Shown one piece after another: positions 3,459 through 55,448 of a stretch of 64,000 bases of DNA. The notes beneath the pieces were generated by a model, which was not told where the DNA came from, searched no databases, and was given only the letters and a program-made list of their open reading frames with translations. Position 1 is the first letter of the stretch. Every line of letters begins with the position of its first letter. The stretch lies in contig CALEMW010000054.1 of NCBI GenBank assembly GCA_937910695.1, positions 13,831-77,830 on the forward strand, written 5' to 3'. The DNA comes from an uncultured bacterium (lineage in GTDB: Bacteria; Krumholzibacteriota; Krumholzibacteriia; LZORAL124-64-63). The translations under genes were made by a program, and so were the position numbers.

Positions 3459-3590
3459 CCCGGCTGTTCGCGGGCCCGGGGGGTGCGGTTTGTCCGCGCC
3501 CCCTTTTTTTTCTGCTCCCGGTTCCAACCTTTCTCCTCCATCATCCGTCCAAGGACTTGCATGGGGGCGCAAGGACCCCGGACCCAAATC

Positions 3591-4175
3591 ATGGAGACGG
3601 TCATGCAGGCCAGGGCTGAACGAATGCACGAGGAACGACACGACGGGTTCAACGCCCCCGACGTGTCCCTTCTCGTCCATCGCGCCCGCAACGGTGATCG
3701 CGCCGCGTTCGAGCAGCTCTACCGACTTCACGTGAGCAGGGTCTACGCCCTGTGTCTGCGGCTCTGCGACGACCGCGACGAAGCCGCGACATTGACCCAG
3801 GACGCCTTCGTGCGCGCCTGGCAGCACCTCGGGTCTTATCGCGGCGACAGTCAGCTGCTGACCTGGCTGCACCGTCTTACGGTGAACGTCGTCCTGGATC
3901 ACCGGCGGGCCTGGCGGCGGCGGGCCCTGCTCGAAATCGCCGACGGCGAGGACCCCGGCGACCGTTCCTCTGTCCATTACGACCGGACATCGACCCGCCT
4001 CGATCTCGAAAAGGCCCTCGCCACCCTCCCTCCCGGCGCCCGCACGGTCTTCGTGCTCCACGAGGTCGAGGGATACCGCCAGACCGAGATCGCCCTGATG
4101 ACGGGCGTCGCGCTCGGCACCGTCAAATCCCAACTCCACCGCGCCCGGGCACTGCTGCGGGAGGTCCTGCGATGA
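3591..4175 (+). CDS. ECF (sigma-70 family group IV) RNA polymerase sigma factor
   Basis: Region 2 ('LYRLHVSRVYALCLRLCDDRDEAATLTQDAFVRAWQHL') and region 4 HTH ('QTEIALMTGVALGTVKSQLHRARALLRE') motifs. Start uncertain (3561 or 3591). Confidence 0.8.
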   Translation: METVMQARAERMHEERHDGFNAPDVSLLVHRARNGDRAAFEQLYRLHVSRVYALCLRLCDDRDEAATLTQDAFVRAWQHLGSYRGDSQLLTWLHRLTVNVVLDHRRAWRRRALLEIADGEDPGDRSSVHYDRTSTRLDLEKALATLPPGARTVFVLHEVEGYRQTEIALMTGVALGTVKSQLHRARALLREVLR

Positions 4176-4774
4176 ACCGACACGACGATATCCGCGAACT
4201 CCTTCACGACTTCGTCGATCACGAACTCCCGGCCGACCGGCAGGACGACGTGGCCCTGCACCTCGCCGAGTGTGCGACCTGCGCCGCCGATGTCGACGCA
4301 CTGCACGCTCTGCGTACGGCCGCCCAGGATCTACCACTCAGCATCGCACCCGACGACGATCTGTGGGGCGCCATCGACGTCCGGCTCGGCGATTCCACTT
4401 CATCGTTCCAAGGTATCGACCGCCACGCCTGGACCATGCGATTGACCTGGGCCGTCGCCGCTGTCCTCGCCTTCGCCCTGATCTGGACCCGTGGCGACGG
4501 CGAAGTAGGCCCGCTGAAGAATCTGACGCAGTCCTACGACACCGTGCGTCACGATGGAGAGCTGGCTCTTTCGAGCGACAACAGCAGACTCGACATCTCC
4601 GGCCGCAACGCCATGACCGACGGCATGAACGCCATCGACGACGCCATCCGCGAAACCCAGATCGCCCTCGACGCCGTGGCCGACGCACCGGAGCAGTTTC
4701 GGCATCTGGCCGACGGGTATCAGAAGAAGATCGACCTGCTGCAACGGCTTGTTCGCCGTGCGGCGCGACCCTAA
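4172..4774 (+). CDS. Membrane anti-sigma factor, zf-HC2 (putative zinc finger) type
   Basis: ATGA start/stop overlap with the sigma gene. 'HLAECATCAADV' H-x3-C-x2-C motif. Single TM 'LTWAVAAVLAFALIW'. Confidence 0.7.
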   Translation: MNRHDDIRELLHDFVDHELPADRQDDVALHLAECATCAADVDALHALRTAAQDLPLSIAPDDDLWGAIDVRLGDSTSSFQGIDRHAWTMRLTWAVAAVLAFALIWTRGDGEVGPLKNLTQSYDTVRHDGELALSSDNSRLDISGRNAMTDGMNAIDDAIRETQIALDAVADAPEQFRHLADGYQKKIDLLQRLVRRAARP

Positions 4775-4784
4775 AGGGAGATGA

Positions 4785-5681
4785 ATGATGAAGCTCAACG
4801 CAAAGACCATGCTGGCAATCATGCTCCTGGCGATCCTCGCCATCCCGGCCCTGGCTGGCGGCGACATCGACGAAAAACGCGACGTGAACAGCGACGCTAA
4901 GATCGTCGTGGACAACCTCGCCGGATCGATCACCGTCGTCGGCTGGGATCGCAACGAGGTCGAGATCAAGGGCTCCCTCGACGAGAAGGCCGACAAGCTC
5001 GATATCGAAGGCGATCGCGACGATCTCGAGATCAAGGTGAAGTACCCGAAGAAGAAGAACCTGAACATCAAGAAGGGGTCTGTCCTCGAAATCCGCGTGC
5101 CCGAGGGCTGCCGGCTCGAACTCAAGGGTGTGAGCTGCGACATCGACGTGAGTAAGTTCCACGGACTGCTCGAAACCGAAAACGTCAGCGGCGACATCCG
5201 CATCGTCGGGGACACCGCAGGCATCACGACCTCCACAGTCAGCGGCGACGTGTTCATCGACACCGACACCGACGTCGTGGAAGTCAGCTGCATCAGCGGC
5301 TATGTGGAGGTGCGTGGCGTTCGAGGCACCCTCGAAGTCAACATGGTGAGCGGTGAAGTCGAAGTGCACAGCGACGTGTTGAAGAACTTCAGTTTCAACA
5401 TCGTCTCCGGCGATCTCGACATCGAAGTCGCCCCTGCCGCAGACGCCGACTGGGAGATCAACAGTCACAGCGGCGACATCACCTTGCGGCTACCGTCCGA
5501 TGTGAGCGCCGAATTCGACATCGAAGTCTTCAGCGGCGACATCGACAACGCGTTCGGCCCCGAAGCCCGACGCACCAGCAAGTTCGCACCCGGCAAAGAG
5601 CTTCAGTTCACCGCCGGAAGCGGGAGCGCGAACATAGAGATCTCGACCTTCAGCGGGGATATCCGACTGGTCCAACGCTAG
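4785..5681 (+). CDS. Secreted DUF4097-type beta-helical repeat protein (putative adhesin; LiaG/YvlB-like)
   Basis: Signal peptide. Repeated '(V/I)SGD(I/V)' beta-strand repeats ('VSGDIRIVGD','VSGDVFIDTD','ISGYVEVRG','VSGEVEVHS','VSGDLDIEV','HSGDITLRL','FSGDIDN','FSGDIRL'). Third gene after the sigma/anti-sigma pair. Confidence 0.65.
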   Translation: MMKLNAKTMLAIMLLAILAIPALAGGDIDEKRDVNSDAKIVVDNLAGSITVVGWDRNEVEIKGSLDEKADKLDIEGDRDDLEIKVKYPKKKNLNIKKGSVLEIRVPEGCRLELKGVSCDIDVSKFHGLLETENVSGDIRIVGDTAGITTSTVSGDVFIDTDTDVVEVSCISGYVEVRGVRGTLEVNMVSGEVEVHSDVLKNFSFNIVSGDLDIEVAPAADADWEINSHSGDITLRLPSDVSAEFDIEVFSGDIDNAFGPEARRTSKFAPGKELQFTAGSGSANIEISTFSGDIRLVQR

Positions 5682-5766
5682 TCTCGGGGATGAGCACGCC
5701 AGTCCCCCGTTGATCGAAGGCCCGCTCCATAAGGAGCGGGCCTTTCGTCGTCCGGAGACGACGTGT

Positions 5767-6963
5767 TCAGCGGGAAAGCGTGATCTTAGTCGTGGTCGTA
5801 CTCGATCCACTGCGCATCCGCGCCAGGTACGTGCCGGAGGGAACGATGTGTCCCCCGACATCGAGTCCCTGCCAGACGATCGAGCCCCGCCCAGCAGGCA
5901 GAAAACCGTCGATCAGCTTCACCACGCGGCGCCCCTTGATGTCCAGAAGCTCCAGCAGCGCCGGGCCTTCGACCTCAAGAGCATAACTCAGGGTGATCCT
6001 GGGATTGAAGGGGTTCGGGTATCCCTCGAGCACGACGACAGCCGGGGGCAACTGGCCCACCCCGGTCCCCACAGTCAACTGATAGGCGAGGACGAGTTGA
6101 TCCATCCCCTGCGCCTCGGTATAGGAATACCCGCTTACGTAGAGCCGACCCAGGGAGTCGATCGTGAGCGCCAGTCCCTCGTCGGTGATGTGATCGACGC
6201 CGTCCCAGCGCTCGACCCATCTTATCTTGCCGATGGTGGGCTCGAGACCGAGGGTGGCGACGTCCCACGACGTGCCGGTCCCGTCGCTGAACCCCGTCAC
6301 GACGATGTCGCCGTTCGGAGCGAAGGTCACGGCGTTGGCCACGTCGTACCAGCCCTGCGGCCCTGCATAGCTCTGACTCCAGACGGTCGCACCGTTCGAG
6401 CCGTCGAGCTTAACGATCAGGTAGTCGCCCGCCGTTGAGCCGACGAGGACCGGGTTGCCCGCGTCGTCGAGGATCATCTCGGACGGGTCGTCGGCGCTGG
6501 CGCCGAGGTGGTTGTAGGACACCGACCAGACGGGCGTGCCGTCGCTGCCGTCGTATTTCGCCACGGCGATGTCGTAGGACGTGGCGCCGCCCCACTCCTT
6601 CCAGGCTGCGATCACATCGCCCGCCTCATCCACGCAGACCCAGCCGTCTCCGCTCTGATCGTTCACCAGACCCGATTCGTTGCGGGCCCAGAGAGCGCCG
6701 CCGTTGGCGCCGTCGTACTTCACGATCATCAGGGTCGCCGAGTTGTCGGCGTTCTGGACCAGGCCCGAGACGACAGGACAATCGTCGTTTCCCACAGCGA
6801 CGCCCAAGGCGCGGTCGTCCATGCGGGCGGCCCCACCCTCCTTGGCCTCCCATAGAGGTGCACCGTCGGCATTGGCGAATTTGATGGTGACCAGCTCGTC
6901 GTCGCGTCCGGTCACGAACATGCGCCCGGCGATCACGATGTCGTCGGAGCCATCGAGGGTCAT
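5767..6963 (-). CDS. C-terminal 398 codons of a secreted BamB/PQQ-like beta-propeller repeat protein ending in a T9SS type-A / FlgD-Ig C-terminal sorting domain
   Basis: C-terminus 'YPNPFNPRITLSYALEVEGPALLELLDIKGRRVVKLIDGFLPAGRGSIVWQGLDVGGHIVPSGTYLARM'. Repeats of the form 'DxxIVAKLDGSNGATVWS'. In frame with 7072..7419 across a single TGA. Confidence 0.6.
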   Translation of the reverse strand: MTLDGSDDIVIAGRMFVTGRDDELVTIKFANADGAPLWEAKEGGAARMDDRALGVAVGNDDCPVVSGLVQNADNSATLMIVKYDGANGGALWARNESGLVNDQSGDGWVCVDEAGDVIAAWKEWGGATSYDIAVAKYDGSDGTPVWSVSYNHLGASADDPSEMILDDAGNPVLVGSTAGDYLIVKLDGSNGATVWSQSYAGPQGWYDVANAVTFAPNGDIVVTGFSDGTGTSWDVATLGLEPTIGKIRWVERWDGVDHITDEGLALTIDSLGRLYVSGYSYTEAQGMDQLVLAYQLTVGTGVGQLPPAVVVLEGYPNPFNPRITLSYALEVEGPALLELLDIKGRRVVKLIDGFLPAGRGSIVWQGLDVGGHIVPSGTYLARMRSGSSTTTTKITLSR

Positions 6964-7071
6964 CCCGTAGGTCGATTCGTTTTCATCACCTGTTGAAGCA
7001 TAATGCTGAAACCAGAGAACCTCTCCGGTTCCGCCGTCGAGCTTCGCGACGACGATATCGTCTCCGTGGCC

Positions 7072-7419
7072 TCAGCCAACGCAACCCAGGATGTGGCCGC
7101 CGACGATCACATCCCCTGCCGCGTCGCAAGCGACGCCGCTGACCGCCATGTCCGAGGTGTCGAACGCAGGAATGCGCCGGGACCAGAGTTCGGCGCCGGT
7201 CTCGCGATGGAGCTTGCGCACCAGCATGTCCGAACCGTCGATGCCGTCGTGGCTGCTGCCGGCAACCACCAGGTGCTGGTCCGAAGTGATGCAGACCACA
7301 TCGCCATGGTCGTCGTAGAGGCCGCCGCCGTCATACGCATCGGACCAGAGAAAGGTCGGGTTCGCCTGTGCCAGGGCGGGGATGATCAGGCACAGACAAC
7401 AGGCAAGAACCCACTTCAT
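7072..7419 (-). CDS. N-terminal part (signal peptide + first propeller blades) of the same gene as 5767..6963, cut off by an in-frame TGA at 7072..7074
   Basis: 'MKWVLACCLCLIIPALAQA' signal peptide. Translation through the TGA gives '...GHILGCVG*GHGDDIVVAKLDGGTGEVLWFQHY...', which continues the repeat pattern. Confidence 0.55.
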   Translation of the reverse strand: MKWVLACCLCLIIPALAQANPTFLWSDAYDGGGLYDDHGDVVCITSDQHLVVAGSSHDGIDGSDMLVRKLHRETGAELWSRRIPAFDTSDMAVSGVACDAAGDVIVGGHILGCVG

Positions 7420-7741
7420 CAGGCAACTCCTCGTTAAACCATAGTTATTTAGTCGCTTATAGCCGACCCCAAGACTGCACGCCCGGGAACTTACGGCATT
7501 ATATCATAGTTCAATGAGCCGGTCGAGATCCGGACCGATCCAGGAGAGCAGCAGAGTGCCGGATGTCCTTGACACTTCGTGAATTGCGTAACAGTCTCTC
7601 CGTTGCTGCTCCCGGAACGTCATGAAGTTGTCATTTTTTTCTTTGGGAGCCCGCAGCCAGATCGCTAAGATGTGAACTGTCGAACTACTTCACGTCTGCC
7701 CACTCCGTCGGCCCAGCCGACGACGACGAGTCCAAGGAGGA

Positions 7742-8281
7742 ATGATGAAGCGCATGAGCCTGATCCTCGCGCTCGCCCTGGTTACCATGGCTGCCGCGAC
7801 CGCCACCTTCGCCGCCGATCCCGAGATCATCGGCGCTCCCAAATGCATGATGTGCCACAAGGCCAAGACCGGCGACCAGGCCGCGATCTGGGAAGCCTCC
7901 GCTCACGCCGGTGCTTTCGAGACTCTCAAGGGCGAGAAGGCAGTCGCCATCGCCGCCGAGAAGGGCCTGGGCAACCCCTGGGAAGAGGCCACTTGTCTGG
8001 GATGCCACACGACCCAGCACTTCACCGGCGCCGCCGTGAACGCGACCGGCAAGTACGAACTGACCGAGGGTGTGAGCTGCGAAGCTTGCCACGGAGCCGG
8101 CTCGGCCTACAAGTCCAAGAAGGTCATGGAAGATCATGACGCAGCCGTCGCCGCCGGCATGCTCGTTGCCGACGAAACGACTTGCGTGAAGTGTCACAAC
8201 GACAAGAGCCCGACTTTTAAGGGCTTCGACTACGCGACGTACTGGGAAAAGATCAAGCACCCGGTTCCCGCCGCCGAGTAG
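7742..8281 (+). CDS. Periplasmic tetraheme c-type cytochrome
   Basis: Signal peptide. Four CxxCH motifs (CMMCH, CLGCH, CEACH, CVKCH). AGGAGG RBS. Confidence 0.8.
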   Translation: MMKRMSLILALALVTMAAATATFAADPEIIGAPKCMMCHKAKTGDQAAIWEASAHAGAFETLKGEKAVAIAAEKGLGNPWEEATCLGCHTTQHFTGAAVNATGKYELTEGVSCEACHGAGSAYKSKKVMEDHDAAVAAGMLVADETTCVKCHNDKSPTFKGFDYATYWEKIKHPVPAAE

Positions 8282-8356: not shown

Positions 8357-10327
8357 TCAGCTGGTCGGGCCATCCCTCTTGTCCGTCTCGGTCCCTTCAA
8401 CGATCTCACGACCGGCCATGAGTTCGCCTTCGGCCTCGACCCTGGTCCTGACCGTATGGCGCTGCTCGACGAGCTTCACTCCCGGGTGCTCGTGCTGGTA
8501 CATCTCCTGGGGCATCATCCCGTTGATCCAAGACGGGTTCATGGGATAGACCTCGGGATTGAACACCGTGGCGTACATGTGCCAGACAAGGATGGCCAGG
8601 AAGGCCAGCCAGGCCTCGTAGTAATGGATGACAAGCATCACGTCCAGGAAGCCCCGCGGCACGAGATGCACGACCCTGTTGTCGAACCACAGCGCGAAAC
8701 CGGAGATCACCATCACCACGGTTCCCCAGATCAACGCCCAGTACTCGGCCTTCTCCACGTAGGAGAACCTGCCGAACTGAGGCGCGTCCTTGCTGAAGCC
8801 GAGATTGAACTTGAGCTTCTGGAACACCTGCACGGCGTCGGTCCAGGTCGGCGTCATGTCCTTGAGGAAATCGCGGCCGCGAGCCGTGAGGAGGATGAAC
8901 AAAGTGTGCCAGATGGCGCCAAAGATCATCAACACGGCCGATCCGCGGTGAATGACGCCGCGGACAGCGTATCCGCCCTCATGCCCGAAGAAGAGCTGGC
9001 TCCACCAGGCATCATAGAAGCGCAGTGAAAATCCGGTGACGACGAGCACCGAGAACGACAGGGCCAGAATCGTGTGCTGGAACACTTCTCCGGGAGTCAT
9101 TCGACGCACCTGGGGACGTTTGTTCAGAACGGAGTGGATCTGTTTGGCCAGATCGATGAGCCAATGCACGATCATCCCGCCGATCACGCTGAAGATCAGC
9201 ACGAGGTAGATGATGCGCACGACGTTGGCGATGCCGGTACGGTGTCCGGTGGCCGTCTCGTGGATCCTCTGGCTCGCGACGTCTTCGGCGATGCCTTCGT
9301 GGCAGTGGCCGCACGTTTCCTGCAGGTTGGCCAGGTTCACGGAAGAACGGGGGTCGGACGAAGGCAGGATCAGGTGGGCGCCGTGGCATGAAGCGCAGTT
9401 GGCCACCTGTTTGTCGCCCGCCTTGCTCTTCAAGCCGTGATAAGAATCCACGAAGGACTGCAGCCGCCCGGTGGGTAGATTGTATTTCTCGTTGAGACTC
9501 GCGAGTTCGTGACACGGTGTACAGGTCGCCTCGGCAAGCCGATAGGGACTGACAGGAGAGCGGCTATCCTGGGTCGGTAAAATTCCGTGTTCGCCGTGGC
9601 ACGTCGTACAGGTGGGGGTGTCGACTTCGCCGCGCTTAAGGAGCTGACCGTGAACACCCACTAGATAGTCCTGCGAAATGGCGTTGTGACACTGGCCGCA
9701 GGTCTCGTGGATGTTGAAGTGGGCGATGGAGGACCTGGCGTCGCTAGGTGGCAGGATCCGGTGGGCGCTGCCGCCCGTTGAGTGACAGTCGTTGCAGCTA
9801 GCCGCCTGATACAATCCACCGGCCGCCGCCTTGCCGTGGACACTCATGCTGTAGACCCGGATCGGGTGTCTGAACTTGATGTTGAGATCGTCGGTCAGGG
9901 TCGAGTCTTCGTGACACACGCCGCAGGTGTTGGGCAGGTTGATGGGATTGGTCAAGGCATGGCGGTCTGATGACGGTAGGATCAAGTGAGTACCATGACA
10001 ATCCGAACAGACCGGAATGTGCTCGGAAACTCCGACAACAGCCCGACCATGCACTTTATATTCGTCCGAAACATCTTCATGACATCCGTCACAGGCAGCG
10101 CGGGCCAGCTTCTCGGCATGGGGCAGTTCCACGATGTCTGCGTGGCATTCGATGCAGTCGAGCCCTTCGTGGACTCCTCCGAGAAGATGGTCGGCTGTGA
10201 CCTCGACGGGGTCTCCGCCGGTATCGGTATGACAGTCGGCACAGTCCGCCGCCGTGAAGTCCTGTGCGAGAGCCGGAGCAGTCAAAAGGACTAGCAAGAG
10301 CAGGGATCGAATCACAGGTACCGCCAT
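8357..10327 (-). CDS. CbcL-like fusion protein: periplasmic multiheme (11 x CxxCH) c-type cytochrome fused to a C-terminal diheme cytochrome b membrane domain (HydC/FdnI / cytochrome b561-like)
   Basis: Start most likely ATG 10327 (GGAGG 6 nt upstream; 10342 also possible). Signal peptide. CADCH, CIECH, CDGCH, CSDCH, CGVCH, CNDCH, CGQCH, CTTCH, CTPCH, CASCH, CGHCH. C-terminal TM helices with conserved His ('MIVHWLI','IWHTLFILL','HYYEAWLAFLAILVWHMY'). Confidence 0.75.
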   Translation of the reverse strand: MAVPVIRSLLLLVLLTAPALAQDFTAADCADCHTDTGGDPVEVTADHLLGGVHEGLDCIECHADIVELPHAEKLARAACDGCHEDVSDEYKVHGRAVVGVSEHIPVCSDCHGTHLILPSSDRHALTNPINLPNTCGVCHEDSTLTDDLNIKFRHPIRVYSMSVHGKAAAGGLYQAASCNDCHSTGGSAHRILPPSDARSSIAHFNIHETCGQCHNAISQDYLVGVHGQLLKRGEVDTPTCTTCHGEHGILPTQDSRSPVSPYRLAEATCTPCHELASLNEKYNLPTGRLQSFVDSYHGLKSKAGDKQVANCASCHGAHLILPSSDPRSSVNLANLQETCGHCHEGIAEDVASQRIHETATGHRTGIANVVRIIYLVLIFSVIGGMIVHWLIDLAKQIHSVLNKRPQVRRMTPGEVFQHTILALSFSVLVVTGFSLRFYDAWWSQLFFGHEGGYAVRGVIHRGSAVLMIFGAIWHTLFILLTARGRDFLKDMTPTWTDAVQVFQKLKFNLGFSKDAPQFGRFSYVEKAEYWALIWGTVVMVISGFALWFDNRVVHLVPRGFLDVMLVIHYYEAWLAFLAILVWHMYATVFNPEVYPMNPSWINGMMPQEMYQHEHPGVKLVEQRHTVRTRVEAEGELMAGREIVEGTETDKRDGPTS

Positions 10328-10700
10328 GATGGCCTCCAACATGAGATCGTGGACTCGACGTTCTAGTCCCTAGGTTGCTCAATGCGAATGCAAAATCAAG
10401 TTCAGATCCAAAATCCCCATTGAATTCATGGGTGTTACATCGTTTCGAATATCATATATCATTAATACGATCACTCTACACCTAGTCGATTACTAGGATT
10501 ATACCTGAATAGACAGCGTCTTCATATTTCACAACTTACAGTTTTTTGGAAATGGATCTCATTGTTGCTTATCTCATTCGGGATCATCAGGTTAGAACAT
10601 CGATCATTTGTGAGGAGAATTCGGGGTTCGTCCATCAACGTTAAGAAAACAACGTCCTGATCCATGTGGGAGAGCTTTCGAGCCTCCCGGGGACGGAACT

Positions 10701-11408: not shown

Positions 11409-12536
11409 CTATTCGACGAGACTCGACAGAAAGACACCCGCAGCCACCGCCGAGCCGATCACCCCGGCCACGTTGGGAGCCATGGCATGCATGATCAGGA
11501 AGTTCTGCGGATCCTCTTTTGCACCCACCATCTGGCAGACCCGCGCCGAGTCGGGCACGGCGGATACGCCGGCCGCGCCGATGATCGGGTTGATCTTGTC
11601 CTTGAAGACCAGGTTCATGCCCTTGGCGAACAGGATGCCGGCGGCCGTGGCCACGGCGAACGACGCCGCGCCGAGCACGAAGATCTTGATGGACGAAGGC
11701 GTGAGAAACACCGATGCATCGGTGCTCGTGCCCACACAGAGACCGAGCAGGATGGTGATGGTGTCGATCAGGGCGTTGCGCGCCGTCTTGGCCAGACGTT
11801 CGGTCACGCCGCTTTCCTTGAGCAGGTTGCCGAAGAAGAGCATGCCCAGCAGCGTGATGGCCCCCGGCGCGATCATGGCCGACAGCAGGAAGGCCACGAC
11901 CGGGAAGGTGATCCGCAGGCGCTTGCTCACAGGACGCGAGGGCTTCATGCGGATCAGCCGTTCTTCGCGCGTGGTGAGCAGCTTGATGATGGGCGGTTGG
12001 ATGACCGGCACCAGCGCCATGTACGAATAGGCGGCGATGGCGATGGGTCCCAGGAACTCCGGCGCCAACTGCGAGGCGAGGAAGATGGCCGTGGGACCGT
12101 CGGCGCCGCCGATGATGCCGATGGCCGCCGCCTGGTTCACCGCGAACCCCATGGCGAGGGCTCCGAAGAACGTGATGAAGATGCCCGCCTGCGCCGCGGC
12201 GCCCAGCATGATCAGCCGCGGATTCGAGAGCATGCAGCTGAAGTCGGTCATGGCCCCGATGCCCAGGAAGATCAGCGGCGGATACCATCCCTTGCTCACG
12301 CCCTGATAGAGCACCGACAGCACGCTGCCTTCCTCGTACACGCCGATGTTCATGCCCTCGGAATAGGGAATGTTGCCGACGAGGATGCCGAAGCCGATGG
12401 GCACCAGCAGCAGCGGCTCGTAGTCTTTGACCACGGCGAGGTAGATGAACAGGCACCCGACGATGAGCATGACCAGGTTGCCCCAGCTGAAGTTGCCCAG
12501 GGCGCCGACCTGCAGGAATTCCCAGAGAACGTCCAT
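11409..12536 (-). CDS. Na+-translocating decarboxylase beta subunit (OadB/MmdB/GcdB family)
   Basis: 375-aa polytopic membrane protein matching the OadB family along its length ('GFGILVGNIPYSEGMNIGVYEEGSVLSVLYQGVSKGWYPPLIFLGIGAMTDF'). Confidence 0.85.
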   Translation of the reverse strand: MDVLWEFLQVGALGNFSWGNLVMLIVGCLFIYLAVVKDYEPLLLVPIGFGILVGNIPYSEGMNIGVYEEGSVLSVLYQGVSKGWYPPLIFLGIGAMTDFSCMLSNPRLIMLGAAAQAGIFITFFGALAMGFAVNQAAAIGIIGGADGPTAIFLASQLAPEFLGPIAIAAYSYMALVPVIQPPIIKLLTTREERLIRMKPSRPVSKRLRITFPVVAFLLSAMIAPGAITLLGMLFFGNLLKESGVTERLAKTARNALIDTITILLGLCVGTSTDASVFLTPSSIKIFVLGAASFAVATAAGILFAKGMNLVFKDKINPIIGAAGVSAVPDSARVCQMVGAKEDPQNFLIMHAMAPNVAGVIGSAVAAGVFLSSLVE

Positions 12537-12539
12537 GGC

Positions 12540-12938
12540 CTACTCGAACTCGACCAGTTGCTGGTTTTCGCGCACGCTGTCGCCGGCGCCGACGAGCACG
12601 GCCTTGACCCGGCCGGCTCCCGGCGAGACGATGGCGGTGTTCATCTTCATGGCCTCGATGATGATCAGGTCCTGGCCCTGAGCGACGTCGTCCCCCGCCT
12701 TGCACTTGACCTCGATGACCGTCCCTGCGATGGGCGACACCACACCGCCGCTGCCTCCGGCCGACGGAACAGGTGCCTGCTGGGCGACCGGTGCCGACGA
12801 CGGCGCGGAAGCCGACAACGCCTGCGTCGCCGTCATCTGGGGCAGGGCTCCCGTCGGGCCGAACTCGTCGCGCTTGGCGTCGAGGACCTCCACGTCGACC
12901 TCGTAGGCGACGCCGTGGACGGTGATCTTCAACTTCAT
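12540..12938 (-). CDS. Biotin carboxyl carrier subunit (biotinyl domain) of the decarboxylase
   Basis: 'IIIEAMKMNTAIVSPGAGRV' biotinylation motif (EAMKM). Ala/Pro-rich linker. Confidence 0.8.
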   Translation of the reverse strand: MKLKITVHGVAYEVDVEVLDAKRDEFGPTGALPQMTATQALSASAPSSAPVAQQAPVPSAGGSGGVVSPIAGTVIEVKCKAGDDVAQGQDLIIIEAMKMNTAIVSPGAGRVKAVLVGAGDSVRENQQLVEFE

Positions 12939-12955
12939 TTCGTACTCCTATCGGG

Positions 12956-13312
12956 TCAACGGTGTCGCACGTTCTTGCGTTCGATCAGATGGGATCCCTG
13001 CAGCTGGGACCGCCCCTGGGCCGACCACGGGCTGCGTTTGTGGTCCGCCGGCATGAGCCGCCGGATGCTGCTGATCCTGAAGCGGCCGCGTAGCACCGTG
13101 GCGGCGGCGGCCGCGATGAGCACGACGGTGGTCGCGTCGATGGTCGGCTCTCTGTTGTAGGCGTCGGCATCGCGGGCCTTCTCCTGGTGCCGCCATTTTT
13201 CGTCGAGCTGTCGGATGCCCGAGATCGTCATGGCGATGATCATCAACACCGCAAAGACGATCAGCAGACCGACGAGGGCCAACGGCAGGTTTTGGACAAG
13301 CAACTCGGACAT
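12956..13312 (-). CDS. OadG-family small membrane subunit of Na+-pumping decarboxylase
   Basis: Single N-terminal TM 'LALVGLLIVFAVLMIIAMTISGI'. Sits between the carboxyltransferase and BCCP genes. Confidence 0.6.
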   Translation of the reverse strand: MSELLVQNLPLALVGLLIVFAVLMIIAMTISGIRQLDEKWRHQEKARDADAYNREPTIDATTVVLIAAAAATVLRGRFRISSIRRLMPADHKRSPWSAQGRSQLQGSHLIERKNVRHR

Positions 13313-13321
13313 CGCGTGCTC

Positions 13322-14887
13322 CTAGAGGGGAATCAGCCCGTGCTTTTTCTGGGGCCGCTGCTCCCGCTTGGATTTGAGGATCTCCAGGGACTGGGCGATG
13401 AAGATCCGCGTGTCGGCGGGTTCGATGATGTCGTCGACGAGGCCGTGGGCGGCCGCCTCGTAGGGGTTGGCGAAGGCTTCGGTGTACTCGTCCAGCTTCT
13501 GTCGACGCGCGGCAGCAGGGTCGTCGGCCCCGGCGATCTCCTTGCGGTAGATCACGTTCACGGCCCCCTCGGCCCCCATCACGGCGATCTCGGCGCTGGG
13601 CCAGGCGGCCACGCGGTCGGCGCCCATGTCCTTGCCGCACATCGCCAGGTAGGCGCCGCCATAGGCCTTGCGCACGATGATCGTGATCTTGGGCACCGTG
13701 GCGGCGCCGTAGGCGAAGAGCATCTTGGCGCCGTGGCGGATGATGCCGCCGTACTCCTGCTGCACGCCGGGCATGAAACCCGGCACGTCGACGAAGGTGA
13801 CCAGGGGAATGTTGAAGGCGTTGCAGAAACGGATGAAGCGCGACGACTTGTCGCTCGAGTCGATGTCGAGCACTCCCGCCTTGTTCATGGGATTGTTGGC
13901 GACCACGCCGACGGTGGCCCCCTCCATGCGCCCGAAGCCGATGATGATGTTCGGCGCCCACTGCTCCTGGACTTCCATGAAGTCGCCGCCGTCGAGGACG
14001 GCGCGCAGCACCTGGTGCATGTCGTAGGGCTGACGGGGATCGTCGGGCACGATGGAGTTGAGGGCGGGAATCGGCCCCACCTCGTCGTCGTGCAGCTCGG
14101 GGTAGACCGGCGCCTCTTCGGTGTTGTTGCTGGGCAGGAACGAGAGCAGGCGCTTGGTGATTTCGGCGGCCTCGGCGCCGCACGACGCTTCGAAGTGCAC
14201 CACGCCCGAGTAATGAGTATGGCTGTACACGCCGCCCAGGTCTTCGGCGGTGACTTCTTCGCCGGTGACCTGCTTGATCACCGACGGGCCGGTGATGAAC
14301 ATCTGACCCTCGCGGCGCACCTGGATGATGAAGTCGGTCAACGCCGGCGAGTAGGCCGCGCCGCCGGCGCAGGGGCCGGCGATGATGCTGATCTGGGGCA
14401 CGACCCCGGACATCAGCACGTTGCGGTTGAAGATGCCGCCGTAGCCGGCCAGCGAGTCGACACCCTCCTGGATACGGGCGCCGCCGCTGTCGTTGATGAA
14501 GATGAAGGGATCGCCGGTCTTCAGGGCGTCGTCCATCACGCCGTGGATCTTCCGCGCGGTGGCTTCGCCCACGGCGCCGCCGGCGACGGTGAAGTCCTGG
14601 CTGGCTACGTAGACGGGACGTCCGCCGAGCAGGCCGCTGCCGGTCACCACGCCCTCGCCGGGAAACTCCTTGTCCTGCATCCCGAAGTTGGTGCAGCGGT
14701 GCTTCATGAAGAGGTGGGTTTCCAGGAACGTGTCCGGGTCGAGCAGCATGGCCAGTCGCTCGCGGGCGGTGTGCTTGCCGGCGGCGTGGAGCTTTTCGAT
14801 ACGGTCGGCGCCGCCGCCCAGGTACAGGCGTTCGCGACGCTCGAGGAGCTGTTCGATCTTCGTCGGCTCAGGTGTGGGCTCGGCCAT
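13322..14887 (-). CDS. Acyl-CoA carboxyltransferase subunit (methylmalonyl-CoA decarboxylase alpha / propionyl-CoA carboxylase beta family)
   Basis: 521 aa. 'GGGADRIEKLHAAGKHTARERL', 'SGGARIQEG', 'ISIIAGPCAGGAAYSPALTDF', 'RKAYGGAYLAMCGK' carboxyltransferase motifs. First gene of the 4-gene operon. Confidence 0.85.
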   Translation of the reverse strand: MAEPTPEPTKIEQLLERRERLYLGGGADRIEKLHAAGKHTARERLAMLLDPDTFLETHLFMKHRCTNFGMQDKEFPGEGVVTGSGLLGGRPVYVASQDFTVAGGAVGEATARKIHGVMDDALKTGDPFIFINDSGGARIQEGVDSLAGYGGIFNRNVLMSGVVPQISIIAGPCAGGAAYSPALTDFIIQVRREGQMFITGPSVIKQVTGEEVTAEDLGGVYSHTHYSGVVHFEASCGAEAAEITKRLLSFLPSNNTEEAPVYPELHDDEVGPIPALNSIVPDDPRQPYDMHQVLRAVLDGGDFMEVQEQWAPNIIIGFGRMEGATVGVVANNPMNKAGVLDIDSSDKSSRFIRFCNAFNIPLVTFVDVPGFMPGVQQEYGGIIRHGAKMLFAYGAATVPKITIIVRKAYGGAYLAMCGKDMGADRVAAWPSAEIAVMGAEGAVNVIYRKEIAGADDPAAARRQKLDEYTEAFANPYEAAAHGLVDDIIEPADTRIFIAQSLEILKSKREQRPQKKHGLIPL

Positions 14888-14965
14888 GGTGTCCTCCGGG
14901 TGGCGGGCCCTCGCGGGGCCCGATCATGATCTCGTCCCTGGGGATATGGTCCCAAAGACCTTGTT

Positions 14966-16616: not shown

Positions 16617-16872
16617 ATGCCTCCTTTCCTGACTGCGACGAGCATATCCGAACAACTCCGATTCGTCGAGCAAATGCCCCTTCTCCACACAGGAACTACG
16701 AAAGAAATAGAGCAAATGCCTGATGCCGGAGTCGTTGAATTGCCGCCATCTCCCGTGCAACAATCCATTCGGCGCCGCCAAGGGGACCGCCAGCTGAGGA
16801 ACCTGAGCCGCTTCCCTGTGGTATCCGGGTTCTATGTTCTTGTTACTATATTCTCATTACGGGGAGGAACCG

Positions 16873-18690
16873 ATGAACCCCACGCGATCGATCGATCCCG
16901 CTCGCCTCGCCGTCCTGATTGTTCTTGTGACCGTGGTCCTGATGGGATCGGTCGCCTGCAACTCGGGACAGAGCGGAGTCAAAGGCTGGAGCGCCGGCAC
17001 GGACCTCGCCGCCGTTTCGATGCACAAAACCCGCGCCGCTAAAATGCCTGGTCTGGCCACCAAGGCCGCCGAATCCTTCTTCGGCACCTTCGAGACCGAC
17101 GACACGCAGCTCGACGACGGCAGCTACGTGGACCTCTACAACCTGTCCGCCGAAGCAGGCGCCGAGATCACGATCTCGATGATCTCCAGCGACGTCGACT
17201 CCTACATCCTGCTCTACCGCGTCGTCGACGGCGGTACCGAACTCGTCGCCCAGGACAACGACAGCTACGGCGACGGCGACGCCCGCCTGACCGTCACCAT
17301 GCCCTCAGCCGGCGCCTACATCATCGCCGCCAACACGGCCGTCGCCGGCGAGACCGGAGGCTACCTCCTGCAGTACGACATGGAGTCCCCCTTCGACGCC
17401 GCGCCGGTCAATGTGACGGCGGGCGGTGCGCTTCAGTTCGACACCGTGGTCACCGGCACCCTCGACGCCAATGACTCGACCGACCAGGAAGGCCGACTCT
17501 ATGAGCTGTTCACCCTGAGCGGAACCGAAGGCCAATACCTGGACCTGCACCTGGAATCCAACGACTTCGACACCGTGATTTCCCTGTTTACCGGTACTCT
17601 CGACGCCCCGGACGTCTACGCCTCCAACGACGACATCGAAGTGGGCGTCGACGCCAACTCGCGCCTGACCGGCACCCTGCCGCAGACCGCCACCTACACG
17701 ATCCAGGTCAAGGCCTACTCCGGCGGCGGCAGCTACACGTTGACGACGACCGGGGAACCCCCCGTGCCGGCCGGCCCCGTGGTCCACGACTGGGCCCAGC
17801 TCTATCCAGGCGGCGGCGATCCCGCCGGCCGCTACGCCCTGATCGTGGGCATCGACGACTATCCCGGCACCGCCAACGATCTGGGCAGCTGCATCGCCGA
17901 TACCCGCGTGATGAAGGACGCCCTGATCCGCCGCTTCGGCTTCGACCCCGCCAACATCGTCGTGCTGCACGATGCCGAAGCCAATCGCGAGCACATCATG
18001 AACGCCTTCACCCGCCACCTGGGCCAGGCCGGCCCCGCGGGCGCGGCTGTGTTCTACTACTCCGGTCACGGCCTGCAGATGGATGACAACTACGGCCTGG
18101 CCGCCGAATTCGACTTCGAAGACGACGGCGTGGACGAGGCCATCGCCATCTGGGCCGTCGACCAGAAGAATTCGGTGATCCTCGACGACGAGCTGGGCAT
18201 GCTGGCCGAAGGCATCGAAGCCGGACGCATGCTCGTCATGCTCGATTCCTGCCACTCGGGCACCGGCACCCGCGCCCGCGGCGAAAAGCAGATGCGCAAC
18301 TTCGCCCAGATGAAGGACCAGTTCACCCTGCCCGCCGAGTACTACGGCGTGAAAAGCGGTGCGCCGGCGGCCGGCACCGGGGGCGAGAACATGAAGGAAC
18401 TCGTCACCCGCAACCGCGACTACGTGCTGCTGACCGCCGCCGCTCCCGACGAGACGGCCCTGACCGGCAGCGACTGGCCCGACTACGGCGGCGTAGCGAG
18501 CGTGTTCACCTACCACCTCGTGAAGAACTTCGACGCCGCGGGCCCGAACGACACCTTCGAGGACATCGCCCTGCGCGTCCGCGAACAGTCGCGCGACTTC
18601 ACCATGTCCACTCAGGACCACGTGCAGACGGCCCAGTTCGAGGGTTCGCAGCTGGGCGCCGGCGTGCAGGCGTTCCTGGGCGGGCGTTGA
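16873..18690 (+). CDS. Secreted lipoprotein with two PPC (pre-peptidase C-terminal) domains followed by a peptidase C14 caspase-like domain (orthocaspase)
   Basis: GGGGAGG RBS. Lipobox 'LMGSVAC'. PPC signatures ('DDGSYVDLYNLSAEAGAEITISM...DSYILLY', 'NDSTDQEGRLYELFTLSGTEGQYLDLHL...TVISLF'). Caspase 'YALIVGIDDY', His in 'FYYSGHG', Cys in 'DSCHSG'. Confidence 0.8.
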   Translation: MNPTRSIDPARLAVLIVLVTVVLMGSVACNSGQSGVKGWSAGTDLAAVSMHKTRAAKMPGLATKAAESFFGTFETDDTQLDDGSYVDLYNLSAEAGAEITISMISSDVDSYILLYRVVDGGTELVAQDNDSYGDGDARLTVTMPSAGAYIIAANTAVAGETGGYLLQYDMESPFDAAPVNVTAGGALQFDTVVTGTLDANDSTDQEGRLYELFTLSGTEGQYLDLHLESNDFDTVISLFTGTLDAPDVYASNDDIEVGVDANSRLTGTLPQTATYTIQVKAYSGGGSYTLTTTGEPPVPAGPVVHDWAQLYPGGGDPAGRYALIVGIDDYPGTANDLGSCIADTRVMKDALIRRFGFDPANIVVLHDAEANREHIMNAFTRHLGQAGPAGAAVFYYSGHGLQMDDNYGLAAEFDFEDDGVDEAIAIWAVDQKNSVILDDELGMLAEGIEAGRMLVMLDSCHSGTGTRARGEKQMRNFAQMKDQFTLPAEYYGVKSGAPAAGTGGENMKELVTRNRDYVLLTAAAPDETALTGSDWPDYGGVASVFTYHLVKNFDAAGPNDTFEDIALRVREQSRDFTMSTQDHVQTAQFEGSQLGAGVQAFLGGR

Positions 18691-31990: not shown

Positions 31991-32101
31991 GTTGCGTGAC
32001 AGGCGGAGGCTCCAACCCTGAGCCGCACGTTAGAATGCCCCTTATTGATCGTACCTGTTCGGCGAGTTATTGCGGCCCTATTCCTATCGAAACCGGAGAT
32101 C

Positions 32102-35100
32102 ATGATGATCACAGCATTCGCCGTTCTGGCCTTGTCTGCAGCGATCACGGCAGCCGGCGGCTCCATGACCGGCAAACCCAGAGTCGTTCCCGCCGACGAT
32201 ACCCACGTATTTGTGGCCCACGGCCCCGCCGTCGCCAAGAGCGACACCGTCACCCTGTTCGGCGGGCCCCTGCGCAACGACGGGAAGTTCCAGGACGACT
32301 TCAATCCGGCGCTGCCGGATTTCGAAGGCTGGACGGGAGTGGACATGAGGGCCGTCACCGTTTCCCGCTGGCACATCGACACCTTCAACTCCCCCACGGG
32401 CACCGCCGCCGCCTGGTGCGGCGAGATGTTCGAGAGCTGCGATGTCGATGATCCGCCCGAGGGCTACGGCAATAGCTACGAAGAGTACCTGGAATGGACC
32501 GGCCGGGTCGCGGATCCCGACCTCCCGACGAACATGACGGTGAGCTTCACGCTGAACTACGACAACGAGCCGGGGTACGACTACCTGTACCTGCAATCTC
32601 TCGGTGCCGCCGGCTGGAACGTCGTGGCCACCTACAACGGCAGCACCCTTCTCGAGGGAACGGGTTTCTTCCAACCTGTGTCGCCCGTCCTGAGCTTCAC
32701 CGTTCCGGCCTCCGATCTCGGCGGCGACGACGGCGACGAAATCCGGTTGCGGTTCCGCGCGACCTCGGACGGTGGGTGGGCCGATTCCGATTGTCTGTGG
32801 CCCACGTCCGGGCTGGCGCAGGTCGATGATGTCGCTGTGAGCGGGGACAATGGATTGGTCGCGACCTTCGACGACTTCGAGAACGGACTGGAGGGTGCGA
32901 GCTGGGCCCTGGGCTTCCCTATCGGTTACGGGAACTTCACGAAGATCTGGCCCCTGCTCGACGACCTCGATCCCTGTGTGCAGAACGATACGCCGCAGGC
33001 GGCGTTCATCGACGATGGGGTGGTGGTGCCCTGCACCGGTGGGACGTTGGGAACGTCCTGGACCTACGGCCCCGGGGGCTTCGTCGTCAACATGACCGGC
33101 GGCTGTGCAGGTCCGACGATGCACGGCTGGAACGAGATCTGGTCGCCGGCGATCGCCTGGGTGGATCCGGCGACGGGAATCGAGCTCGGCAGGACGCATC
33201 GCGGCGGCAGGTTGGAATATGGGATCTGGCCACATCTGCCGATCTCAAACGGGTGCTTCTATCTATGGCATGTTCGCTCGTCTTCCGATCATGGGATGAC
33301 ATGGACGGATTGGATGGATCGCAACTACGTCTATTACGGATCGACATCATACCAACGTGACTCGAGAGACGTCACCGATCTCGTCGTCGACAACCCGACC
33401 CATATCCAAGTGGCTCTCGGTTTCAGGGAGTTGGGGTGGATCTGGCCGATCTACCATGACCCGACCCCCGCCCCCTACTTCGACAACATCCGCTTCGACG
33501 TCTTCACCCTGACCGGTCCCACCCTCGCCGCCCAGGCCGACCTGCTCGCCCAGGACGCCTTCCCCGCCTCGGGCGTGCTCGACTTCGCCGAGCTCGCCGC
33601 CAACTCCATACGCTTCGACTGTGCCCGGGATCTCATAGAGGACGCAGCCACCGCCATCATGCCCGGCGACTCGCTTGTCTGCAGCGTCGCCTCCCATCGC
33701 CCGGGCGCCGTCCTCACCCAACCGCCCCGCCTGTACTACACCATGAAGCCGAACCCCCTGTTCGACCCCTGCCGGGAGCACCCGACGAGAGGCTGGGTCG
33801 TCGGAGACTCGGCGCGCACCGCGGCCGGCGAGGCCGTGCCCGATCTCTGGGCCTTCGACCTGCCCGACACCGGCTTCTTCTTCCCCGGCGACGTGATCCA
33901 CTACCTGTTCCACGCCGAGGACGACGTGGGCGGCGACGTCGAAGCCACGACCCTGCCCGCCTCGACCGTCGGCTTCGACGTGTTCCCCGGCGACCCCGGC
34001 TACGACCCGCTGCTCTGGCCCGCCGAGTTCACGGTGCGCGGGCTGCCGACGATGACCGGTTCCGAGCCCGGCGATCAGCCTACGGTGCTGCTGTGGGACG
34101 ACGGCGGGACGCGTCCGGACGCAGAGCGCTGGGAACCGGTCATGGCCGAGCTCGGCTACGACCTGGGCGTGCACTTCGATCTGTACCGGACCCAGGCCGC
34201 TTCGTCGGGCGTGAGCAACGGGCTGGGGTCGCGGGCGACGGTCGATCAGATCGCCGGTTACGAGACGGTCCTCTACTCCTGCGGGGATCAGGGGTCCTAC
34301 ACCCTCAACCATGTGAGCCGATACGGCGACAAGTCCGACGATCTCGGCCTGCTGGACGGCTGGTTGCCGCTGGGAGGCAATCTGCTGGTCTCGGGTGACA
34401 ACGTGGTGTACGACCTGGACAGGGGCCAGGGAGCAGCCGGCGACGCATTCGCCGCGGACTGGATCTCGGCCGCCTACATCGCCCCTGCGATCGAGGACCT
34501 CATCGATGGTCAGCTTGCACCGCTGATCATTGCCATCCCCGGCAACCCCGCCGGCCTCGCCCTGCCCTTCACCGTCTACGGCGACTGTCCCGGCCGCCGG
34601 CGCTTCAACGCCTTCGAGCCCGCAGGCGACGCGTTCGCCCTGGCGGAGTGGACCGATCCGTATGGCCAGGGCGGCGTCTATCCTTATGCCGCCGTCCTCG
34701 CCCATGAGACGGCGGGATCGCGCATCGTGACCATCGCCGCCGATCTGTCTGCCTGGATCGATCAGGACGGCGGGGCGGTGTCTCGACTCCACGCCCTCGC
34801 TTCGCTGCTCCAGTGGTTCGGGGAGCCGGTGCCGGGCGGGTCGACCGGTGTGGAGGACACACCGCGAGCGCTCGCCGCCCGCGCCTATCCGAACCCGTTC
34901 AATCCGCAGACGACGATCGTCTTCGACGTGCCGCGGCGCGGGCGGGTGTCGGTGGCCGTGTACGACGTGCGCGGACGGCTGGTGCGGCAGTTGGCGGACG
35001 GGAAGTACGAGGCTGGTTCGGCCTACGAAGCGACATGGACCGGTGACGACGACACCGGGCGATCCGTGGCGACAGGAGCCTACTTTGTCGAAGTGCGAAC

Positions 35101-35143
35101 CGGCGGGGAGTCAGTGGTGGAGAAGGTCATGCTGGTAAGGTGA
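32102..35143 (+). CDS. Large (~1010 aa) secreted protein of unknown function with T9SS type-A/FlgD-Ig C-terminal sorting domain
   Basis: Signal peptide 'MMITAFAVLALSAAITAAGG'. C-terminus 'AYPNPFNPQTTIVFDVPRRGRVSVAVYDVRGRLVRQLADG...TGAYFVEVRTGG'. Confidence 0.7.
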   Translation: MMITAFAVLALSAAITAAGGSMTGKPRVVPADDTHVFVAHGPAVAKSDTVTLFGGPLRNDGKFQDDFNPALPDFEGWTGVDMRAVTVSRWHIDTFNSPTGTAAAWCGEMFESCDVDDPPEGYGNSYEEYLEWTGRVADPDLPTNMTVSFTLNYDNEPGYDYLYLQSLGAAGWNVVATYNGSTLLEGTGFFQPVSPVLSFTVPASDLGGDDGDEIRLRFRATSDGGWADSDCLWPTSGLAQVDDVAVSGDNGLVATFDDFENGLEGASWALGFPIGYGNFTKIWPLLDDLDPCVQNDTPQAAFIDDGVVVPCTGGTLGTSWTYGPGGFVVNMTGGCAGPTMHGWNEIWSPAIAWVDPATGIELGRTHRGGRLEYGIWPHLPISNGCFYLWHVRSSSDHGMTWTDWMDRNYVYYGSTSYQRDSRDVTDLVVDNPTHIQVALGFRELGWIWPIYHDPTPAPYFDNIRFDVFTLTGPTLAAQADLLAQDAFPASGVLDFAELAANSIRFDCARDLIEDAATAIMPGDSLVCSVASHRPGAVLTQPPRLYYTMKPNPLFDPCREHPTRGWVVGDSARTAAGEAVPDLWAFDLPDTGFFFPGDVIHYLFHAEDDVGGDVEATTLPASTVGFDVFPGDPGYDPLLWPAEFTVRGLPTMTGSEPGDQPTVLLWDDGGTRPDAERWEPVMAELGYDLGVHFDLYRTQAASSGVSNGLGSRATVDQIAGYETVLYSCGDQGSYTLNHVSRYGDKSDDLGLLDGWLPLGGNLLVSGDNVVYDLDRGQGAAGDAFAADWISAAYIAPAIEDLIDGQLAPLIIAIPGNPAGLALPFTVYGDCPGRRRFNAFEPAGDAFALAEWTDPYGQGGVYPYAAVLAHETAGSRIVTIAADLSAWIDQDGGAVSRLHALASLLQWFGEPVPGGSTGVEDTPRALAARAYPNPFNPQTTIVFDVPRRGRVSVAVYDVRGRLVRQLADGKYEAGSAYEATWTGDDDTGRSVATGAYFVEVRTGGESVVEKVMLVR

Positions 35144-39516: not shown

Positions 39517-39894
39517 CACCGACGTTTCGGGCAGGTTCGAACGGTTCACGGAAGCTCCTTGGTTCGAGGTCGGCGAGAGTATGAGGGTTCGAATTGTGCC
39601 GTGCTTGCGAAAACTGGACGGAGATATGGATTCTCGGAGTGTCCGGCAAGAGATAGAACTCCGTGGAACACAAATACGATTGATCGACTCCTGTATTTTT
39701 GTAAAATTATCATCATATTGAATTTTACAGATCATAATATAAGTAACCTGTGATACAATCGCATACTCGTCAGATATCGACATCTTTAGCGCCGATGAAC
39801 GCCTTTTAGGCCTAATCGGCATATGACAGGTCCGGAGTTGGATCAAAATCGCAACATGGTGTGGCGACACGATCCGACGGAGAAAGGAAGGCCC

Positions 39895-44715: not shown

Positions 44716-44842
44716 TTTCCCTTTGCCCCTGGTATTGCTTTATCATTCTGCAAAAATACGTTAGAATGATAGGGTACTGATGGACTGGATTCCGCGTCCT
44801 CCCGCCGCGACGCCGTCACAGCACACCCGATCCCAAGGATGG

Positions 44843-55396: not shown

Positions 55397-55448
55397 AGCC
55401 TCGGTTCATCTGTTTTCTTCCCCGACGATTCGCGTTAATGTCACCACC

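Follow-up and report, generated by a model that had tools for sequence, protein, structure and literature searches.

Gene organization at the locus

The DNA analyzed here is a stretch of 64,000 nt from an uncultured bacterium of the Krumholzibacteriota (GenBank assembly GCA_937910695.1, contig CALEMW010000054.1, positions 13,831 to 77,830), referred to below as the window. On its minus strand lies a gene (7419..5767) whose frame, opened by an ATG at 7419, is interrupted by a single in-frame TGA at codon 116 (7072-7074; the plus strand reads TCA) and then runs on to the next stop, the TGA at 5769..5767, with a read-through product of 550 aa. The initial annotation had described two open reading frames (ORFs) in one frame with only this TGA between them, in a gene for a beta-propeller cargo protein of the type IX secretion system (T9SS) whose repeats continue across the stop, and both points are confirmed. 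It had offered assembly error, fresh nonsense mutation and programmed read-through as explanations, and had considered selenocysteine (Sec) unlikely. We propose instead that the TGA is very probably a conserved selenocysteine codon, accompanied by a two-hairpin element that resembles a selenocysteine insertion sequence (SECIS), and that the gene represents a new selenoprotein family.

Around the stop the read-through product is ...VGGHILGCVG*GHGDDIVVAKLDGGTGEVLWFQHY..., which places the TGA inside blade 2 of eight blades of about 54 residues each, with the second strand of that blade (DVIVGGHI) before it and the third (DDIVVAKL) after it. The continuity of the repeat across the TGA is far beyond chance.

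Conservation of the in-frame TGA

In the comparison with orthologues, which the initial annotation had named as a check, the homologous codon was TGA in all 50 species-representative genomes encoding a relative and in all 37 metagenome contigs reaching the site. The 74 distinct DNA versions of the gene (31-79% protein identity) carry TGA throughout, with no instance of TAA, TAG or a sense codon. The genomes of these relatives are labelled Candidatus Krumholzibacteriia or Krumholzibacteriota, several metagenome-assembled genomes are filed as 'uncultured Fibrobacteraceae', and one as Latescibacterota. Every homologue examined is split alike into an ORF of about 115 aa, the TGA and an open frame of about 434 codons. 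One Krumholzibacteriia genome (locus L022) possesses tandem paralogues (4265-5566 and 5639-7303), both of which keep the TGA, in the contexts C-G-G-T-TGA and C-G-T-TGA. Codon alignment of 48 full-length genes gave an amino-acid identity of 0.43 both before and after the TGA, with synonymous fractions of 0.45 and 0.43, and indicates that purifying selection is equal on the two sides.

Seen in one sequence, a lone in-frame stop in an otherwise intact gene looks like a sequencing or assembly error, or like a recent nonsense mutation that has made a pseudogene. The exact 115-aa ORF ending at the TGA is, however, recorded in 56 blocks of a public assembly collection, and the contigs that were read (at least 22) come from independent samples and different assemblers and share the same gene order. 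A fresh mutation is equally at odds with a TGA kept across more than 50 species, with equal selection on both sides and with conserved RNA structure downstream. Both explanations are refuted by these comparisons, and their probability is negligible.

Some uncultured bacterial lineages reassign TGA, and a change of the genetic code throughout the lineage, with TGA as a sense codon for Trp or Gly (tables 4 or 25), was considered for this reason, nothing specific speaking for it. The genuine terminator of the 49 family genes varies, being TAG in 25, TGA in 14 (the gene of the window included) and TAA in 10; it drifts freely, so the identity of a stop is otherwise unconstrained and TGA serves these genomes as a normal stop. 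Many long ORFs of the window also end in TGA, no second conserved in-frame TGA emerged from the window and about 100 related loci, and a genome of about 64% G+C is unlike the lineages known to have reassigned TGA. A code change is scarcely credible here, being refuted by the family genes that themselves end in TGA.

All public gene calls split the gene at the TGA, as if it encoded two separate products, namely a small secreted protein of 115 aa and a downstream protein translated from an internal start, and the real terminator in the window is likewise a TGA. Database searches return the same two pieces: the read-through protein retrieved about 45 homologues (35-79% identity, 375-432 aa) covering only the C-terminal 68-78% of the query, and the N-terminal 115 aa retrieved 15 'hypothetical' proteins of 104-151 aa, all ending in ...GC[VE]G at the TGA. 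Yet two products would mean a blade cut between its second and third strands, and a C-terminal piece that has no signal peptide although its T9SS sorting domain presupposes export. Gene callers place the internal start differently from species to species (in the window the first ATG, 36 sense codons past the TGA, opens the listed ORF 5767..6963; elsewhere a GTG about 8 codons on is used), whereas the frame is always kept and the stop is always TGA. Two independent products are therefore very unlikely.

At four loci (L030, L034, L045 and L048) no stop interrupts the frame over the 320-480 codons preceding the predicted start, which might represent another gene in that frame or the effect of chance in DNA of high G+C content.

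Sequence context of the codon

The prevailing local motif is G-C-x-G-TGA-G-x-G-D-D, with C-D-S-TGA, C-G-S-TGA and C-G-T-G-TGA as variants. A Cys residue stands 3 (rarely 4) residues before the TGA in all sequences except one metagenome contig, which is considered below. With the TGA read as Sec this context is CxxU, a recognized arrangement in many redox selenoproteins (PMC13188914).

RNA structures downstream of the TGA

The initial annotation saw no SECIS-like hairpin just 3' of the TGA. Two hairpins, designated A and B (Table 1), are present a little farther downstream; they were missed by eye because they begin 18 nt and 42 nt past the TGA and not directly after it. The more distal hairpin B covers the six codons, +16 to +21 (ACC GGR GAG GUU CUC UGG), at which synonymous divergence reaches its minimum for the gene (0.098 versus a median of 0.43), and strong synonymous suppression is confined to this one site. 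Its Val codon GUU is retained despite about 85% G+C at third codon positions in the genome. In a 50-sequence alignment 98.7% of the cells of hairpin B are paired and three pairs show compensatory changes; a swap of G-C to C-G, which recodes E-V-L as Q-L-V, arose in two separate clades. The minimum free energy (MFE) of the hairpin is -10.4 kcal/mol (z = -3.1), the loop variants are AGUUG, CGGUG, AGUUU and AGUUA, and the spacing from the TGA is fixed, at 41 nt (68 sequences) or 44 nt (6 sequences). The second paralogue of L022 has the loop CGGUG in a segment encoding TGAVLW.

Hairpin A, located directly 5' of hairpin B, was found unprompted by RNAalifold, which also recovered hairpin B. It is paired in 95.5% of cells, again with compensatory changes in three pairs, and a G-C to A-U replacement occurred 11 times, the Val-to-Ile change on one side being matched by a synonymous GGC-to-GGT change on the other. 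Taken jointly, the two helices are paired in 97.3% of cells, versus 37-57% in slid controls, and carry double (compensatory) changes in six pairs; none of 500 shuffles equalled the observed values. Single-sequence folds of four diverse members gave identical tandem hairpins (-22.8 to -25.3 kcal/mol, z from -2.3 to -4.0).

Other candidate structures were rejected. A long-range helix between the UGA region and the 3' flank of hairpin B, which appears in the single-sequence MFE fold, is paired in only 64.6% of cells across homologues. A small hairpin at +10..+21 (GACGAYRUCGUC) is 90% paired, but Asp and Val codons would produce such a near-palindrome anyway, and there is free variation at its synonymous sites.

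Fit to the bacterial SECIS consensus

The bacterial SECIS (bSECIS) model of Zhang and Gladyshev, as summarized in PMC13188914, has an apical loop of 3-9 nt on an upper stem of 4-16 bp, a G among the first two loop nucleotides, mostly in the pattern N1-G-[G|U]-N-N2 closed by an N1-N2 pair, an MFE of -7.5 kcal/mol or below, and a UGA-to-loop distance of 16-37 nt, the last being true of most elements but not all. Hairpin B agrees with this model in loop size, stem length, loop sequence and MFE. Its UGA-to-loop distance, 49 nt (68 sequences) or 52 nt (6 sequences), falls outside the consensus range. Hairpin A spans 23 nt and abuts hairpin B with a linker of 0-1 nt; if hairpin A folds, the base of hairpin B is thus only 17-18 nt of single strand away from the UGA, and the effective path from UGA to loop would be about 26 nt if a helical junction lets it skip hairpin A. 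Since hairpin A starts at +18, both hairpins should remain outside the mRNA channel of the ribosome while the UGA occupies the A site.

The archetype of bacterial selenoprotein genes with an intragenic SECIS is fdhF of Escherichia coli. The propeller gene shares with such genes a UGA conserved among orthologues, a stem-loop inside the coding sequence and a small apical loop of G followed by G or U that is closed by a base pair, here on an 8 bp stem. It differs in the position of the loop, at 49 nt, in the conserved 23-nt hairpin between the UGA and the SECIS-like hairpin, and in having no match to an Rfam or other model.

The hairpins could also serve a SelB-independent programmed read-through, in which a near-cognate or suppressor tRNA (for Trp, Cys, Arg or Gly) would decode the UGA under stimulation by the RNA structure and yield the full-length protein without selenium. 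Downstream structures are known to stimulate read-through, no Sec machinery was found in the window or the related loci, the hairpin spacing departs from the consensus bacterial SECIS, and Cys homologues were not found. If a standard residue were tolerated at this position, however, replacements by sense codons would be expected among 74 diverged versions of the gene, and none was seen. Moreover, the conserved partner Cys three residues upstream gives CxxU, the loop with its G followed by G or U between paired N1 and N2 is of the SelB type, and the sole strong synonymous constraint is located 42-62 nt downstream, versus the 5-9 nt typical of stimulators. We regard such read-through as improbable, though it shares with the proposed selenocysteine insertion that both are programmed, and to this extent the third option of the initial annotation was right in kind.

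Several observations weigh against selenocysteine. Besides the UGA-to-loop distance given above, Rfam returned only noise, both for the whole window at gathering thresholds and for 6900-7130 searched permissively. Word-indexed searches of 5.8 billion proteins found no homologue with Cys or another sense codon at the site, and most selenoprotein families have a Cys form. In the metagenome contig L070 (PJEL010137512.1, around nt 139-150) Gly replaces the partner Cys (G-G-I-G-TGA-G-A-G-D-D); a sequencing error in this 1.7-kb contig and a real variant without a selenenylsulfide partner are both possible. No selA, selB, selD or tRNA-Sec was found in the 64-kb window, in about 10 kb past its right end or in about 600 kb of sequence from about 100 related loci, an absence that is uninformative because the search covered only the window and locus flanks of about 10 kb; Pfam annotation of about 40 genes of the window likewise revealed no selenium-related gene. 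Finally, when 202 candidate in-frame TGAs from the window and the related loci were clustered, the conserved ones were only those of this family, together with artefacts of antisense frames and gene junctions, and no credible structure like hairpin B follows any other in-frame TGA.

About 12.6% of catalogued bacterial selenoprotein genes have no canonical SECIS (PMC13326102). The objection of the initial annotation to selenocysteine is not supported, given a conserved C-x-x-TGA in which the stop is only ever TGA and is followed by a covarying pair of stem-loops with a SECIS-type apical loop.

Architecture of the read-through protein

The gene is best read as encoding one 550-residue protein with a signal peptide, an eight-bladed propeller of the SBBP type, a Cys113-x-x-Sec116 motif in a glycine-rich loop of blade 2 and a T9SS type A sorting domain (Table 1). 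A comparable hydrophobic N-terminal leader was recognized by eye in all 48 full-length homologues. The promoter-like site is the sole consensus match in 5600-7750, where shuffled sequences average 0.3.

Table 1. Features of the propeller gene, in coordinates of the window
Feature	Position	Strand	Basis and remarks
Promoter-like site, TCGACC-17-TATAAT with TG before the -10	7498..7526	-	Consensus match only; about 80 nt upstream of the ATG
Shine-Dalgarno-like GAGGAG	7427..7432	-	Read from sequence; 7 nt before the ATG at 7419
Predicted signal peptide MKWVLACCLCLIIPALAQA, with hydrophobic core and A-x-A cleavage motif, then NP	7363..7419	-	Translation, judged by eye
Upstream coding part (codons 1-115), with the signal peptide, all of blade 1 and the first half of blade 2	7075..7419	-	Translation
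C-V-G-TGA, putative Cys113-x-x-Sec116 motif	7072..7083	-	Translation and homologue comparison
Downstream coding part (codons 117-550), with the remainder of blade 2, blades 3-8, the linker and the sorting domain; stop TGA at 5767-5769	5770..7071	-	
RNA hairpin A, stem of 6-8 bp, loop of 7-11 nt	7032..7054	-	+18..+40 after the UGA; RNAalifold, covariation
RNA hairpin B, SECIS-like, stem of 8 bp, apical loop AGGUU at 7018-7022	7010..7030	-	+42..+62 after the UGA, loop from +50; encodes T-G-E-V-L-W
Eight-bladed beta-propeller (SBBP / delta-60-like repeats), residues ~21-455	6055..7359	-	Repeat register, sub-threshold NCBIfam matches, structure match
T9SS type A C-terminal sorting domain, residues 467-546	5782..6021	-	TIGR04183

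Each repeat closes with G-x-x-x-W, which sets the register, with Trp at positions 25, 79, 136, 190, 244, 298, 347 and 401. Models of the SBBP and delta-60 repeats match below their cut-offs (NF047494, 37 bits; TIGR02608, 29 bits), and many homologues carry a precomputed PF06739 assignment. The sorting domain is recognized by TIGR04183 (25.4 bits versus a curated cut-off of 23), with Pfam Por_Secre_tail and FlgD_ig matching it below their cut-offs. An AlphaFold2 model of residues 117-550 is all-beta (mean predicted local distance difference test, pLDDT, 85.9); its best match among solved structures is the propeller of CylK (7ron; Foldseek, TMq 0.61, E = 2.9e-13), followed by the propellers of BamB, tetrathionate hydrolase and pyrroloquinoline quinone (PQQ)-dependent dehydrogenase. 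From its B-C loop position in the repeat register, the Cys/Sec loop is predicted to lie on the 'top' face of the propeller.

The protein appears to share its repeat family and fold with the SBBP and delta-60 propellers (PF06739, TIGR02608; CylK 7ron), many of which are T9SS cargo as well. It differs in that the ordinary members have neither Cys nor Sec in the loop; G-C-x-G-U-G-x-G-D-D in blade 2 defines this subfamily. A profile of the N-terminal part retrieved 15,967 repeat propellers among 1.84 billion representatives, and six long hits inspected from the best 150, picked because they matched at their N-terminus or reached the profile end, contained no Cys/Sec loop; in distant propellers the corresponding loop likewise lacks Cys and Sec. 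Since the inspected propellers have ordinary loops without Cys, the family looks like a specialized offshoot of the SBBP propellers, defined by the Cys/Sec loop in blade 2.

The window encodes three more proteins with a T9SS sorting domain (Por_Secre_tail), all on the plus strand: a 1047-aa protein (32000-35143), a 1624-aa gingipain-like C25 peptidase (39799-44673) and an M14 carboxypeptidase (44765-47404). The organism evidently uses the T9SS heavily.

Proposed decoding and function

We propose that the two abutting hairpins 18-62 nt past the UGA recruit SelB, so that Sec-tRNA(Sec) would decode the UGA in place of a release factor. Hairpin B, with its AGGUU loop of the bacterial SECIS type, would be the SelB-binding element, and hairpin A may act as a folded spacer that keeps hairpin B within reach of SelB on the ribosome. 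The protein is presumably exported by the general secretory (Sec) translocon and then carried across the outer membrane by the T9SS. The Cys/Sec pair could form a redox-active selenenylsulfide, or a metal- or chalcogen-binding site, on the face of the propeller; a thiol/selenol redox site or a chalcogen- or metal-binding site at the cell surface appears the likeliest role, which we suggest with low confidence.

A Cys three residues before Sec is the classic selenenylsulfide arrangement of the CxxU redox selenoproteins, including SelW-like and AhpD-like proteins, GrdA, HdrA and the FCYXU-type TonB-dependent receptor (NF049945), the last of which is also an extracytoplasmic, outer-membrane selenoprotein. 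The propeller family has no sequence homology to these proteins. Its motif is placed in a loop of a propeller blade, theirs in thioredoxin-like or AhpD folds or in a beta-barrel; most of them have a Cys form, whereas none was found here.

Among the 119 prokaryotic selenoprotein families and subfamilies listed in a 2026 review there is no beta-propeller and no T9SS cargo (PMC13188914, Table 1). Searched against NCBIfam release 20, the read-through protein matched only SBBP, delta-60 and T9SS models and no selenoprotein model, and full-text literature searches found nothing relevant tying Krumholzibacteriota, the T9SS or propellers to selenoproteins. Most likely this is a previously undescribed selenoprotein family of the Krumholzibacteriota, within a known kind of system and with an unusual SECIS layout. 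Extracytoplasmic selenoproteins as such are already known, as in the FCYXU-type TonB-dependent receptor, ExtKL and the GSU2204 family.

If confirmed, the family is one that both standard discovery routes would miss: homology searches for Sec/Cys pairs fail because it has no Cys form, and searches for a consensus SECIS are defeated by the long distance between UGA and loop, which points to an undercount of such families in current catalogues. Confirmation would also bring a little-known candidate phylum, a new fold and, through the T9SS, the bacterial surface into selenium biology, and the family offers a natural test case for the reach and RNA architecture of bacterial SECIS action. The public annotations (about 60 clusters), which split the gene into two 'hypothetical proteins', should be merged.

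Genomic neighborhood

Directly upstream of the propeller gene lies a gene for a 4-haem cytochrome c (7742-8281, plus strand; Cytochrome_C554 and MtrC-like matches), and beside it one for an 11-haem cytochrome fused to a cytochrome b561-type membrane domain (8357-10342, minus strand). This cytochrome pair adjoins the gene in the window and in 13 related species, and three more species encode 11-13-haem cytochromes within about 4 kb; cytochromes are thus near the gene in 17 of the 50 species, with none nearby in the other 33. No neighbor gene is universal across the loci of the 50 species.

The extracytoplasmic electron-transfer selenoproteins, namely the multihaem cytochrome ExtKL (NF040886), the GSU2204 family and the octahaem tetrathionate reductase family, resemble the propeller protein in their predicted non-cytoplasmic location, and the propeller gene adjoins multihaem cytochrome genes in the clade of the window (14 species). 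The propeller protein differs from them in having no haem-binding motif and in its predicted export by the T9SS, and the cytochrome linkage is absent in 33 of the 50 species. In one clade, the Cys/Sec site may be wired to an electron-transfer chain, a suggestion of low confidence. The full set of novelties, in which the protein would be the first beta-propeller selenoprotein and the first exported by the T9SS, in a Sec-only family with a non-canonical bipartite SECIS acting from 49 nt, and would form the selenium-dependent catalytic end of a surface multihaem electron-transfer module in part of the phylum, is put forward only tentatively.

Immediately downstream and convergent with the propeller gene are genes for an extracytoplasmic function (ECF) sigma factor, a zf-HC2 anti-sigma factor and a DUF4097 'toastrack' protein (3483-5681, plus strand), an arrangement kept in only about five close relatives. 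Farther away, a SulP-family anion permease fused to STAS and rhodanese domains is encoded at 55350-57608 (plus strand); rhodanese domains are known as selenoproteins elsewhere, and this fusion might, speculatively, be linked to the uptake of selenium or sulfur. A Na+-translocating decarboxylase operon (11409-14923, minus strand) contains genes for a carboxyltransferase, OAD gamma, a biotin carrier and OAD beta; the apparent in-frame stops in it are ordinary gene junctions, the genes abutting in one frame. A caspase-domain (C14) protein with a PPC domain is encoded at 16807-18690 (plus strand) and a TPR-CHAT protein just past the right-hand boundary of the window (L095, 6269-9169); both domain types, caspase (C14) and CHAT, are often linked to conflict or defence systems.

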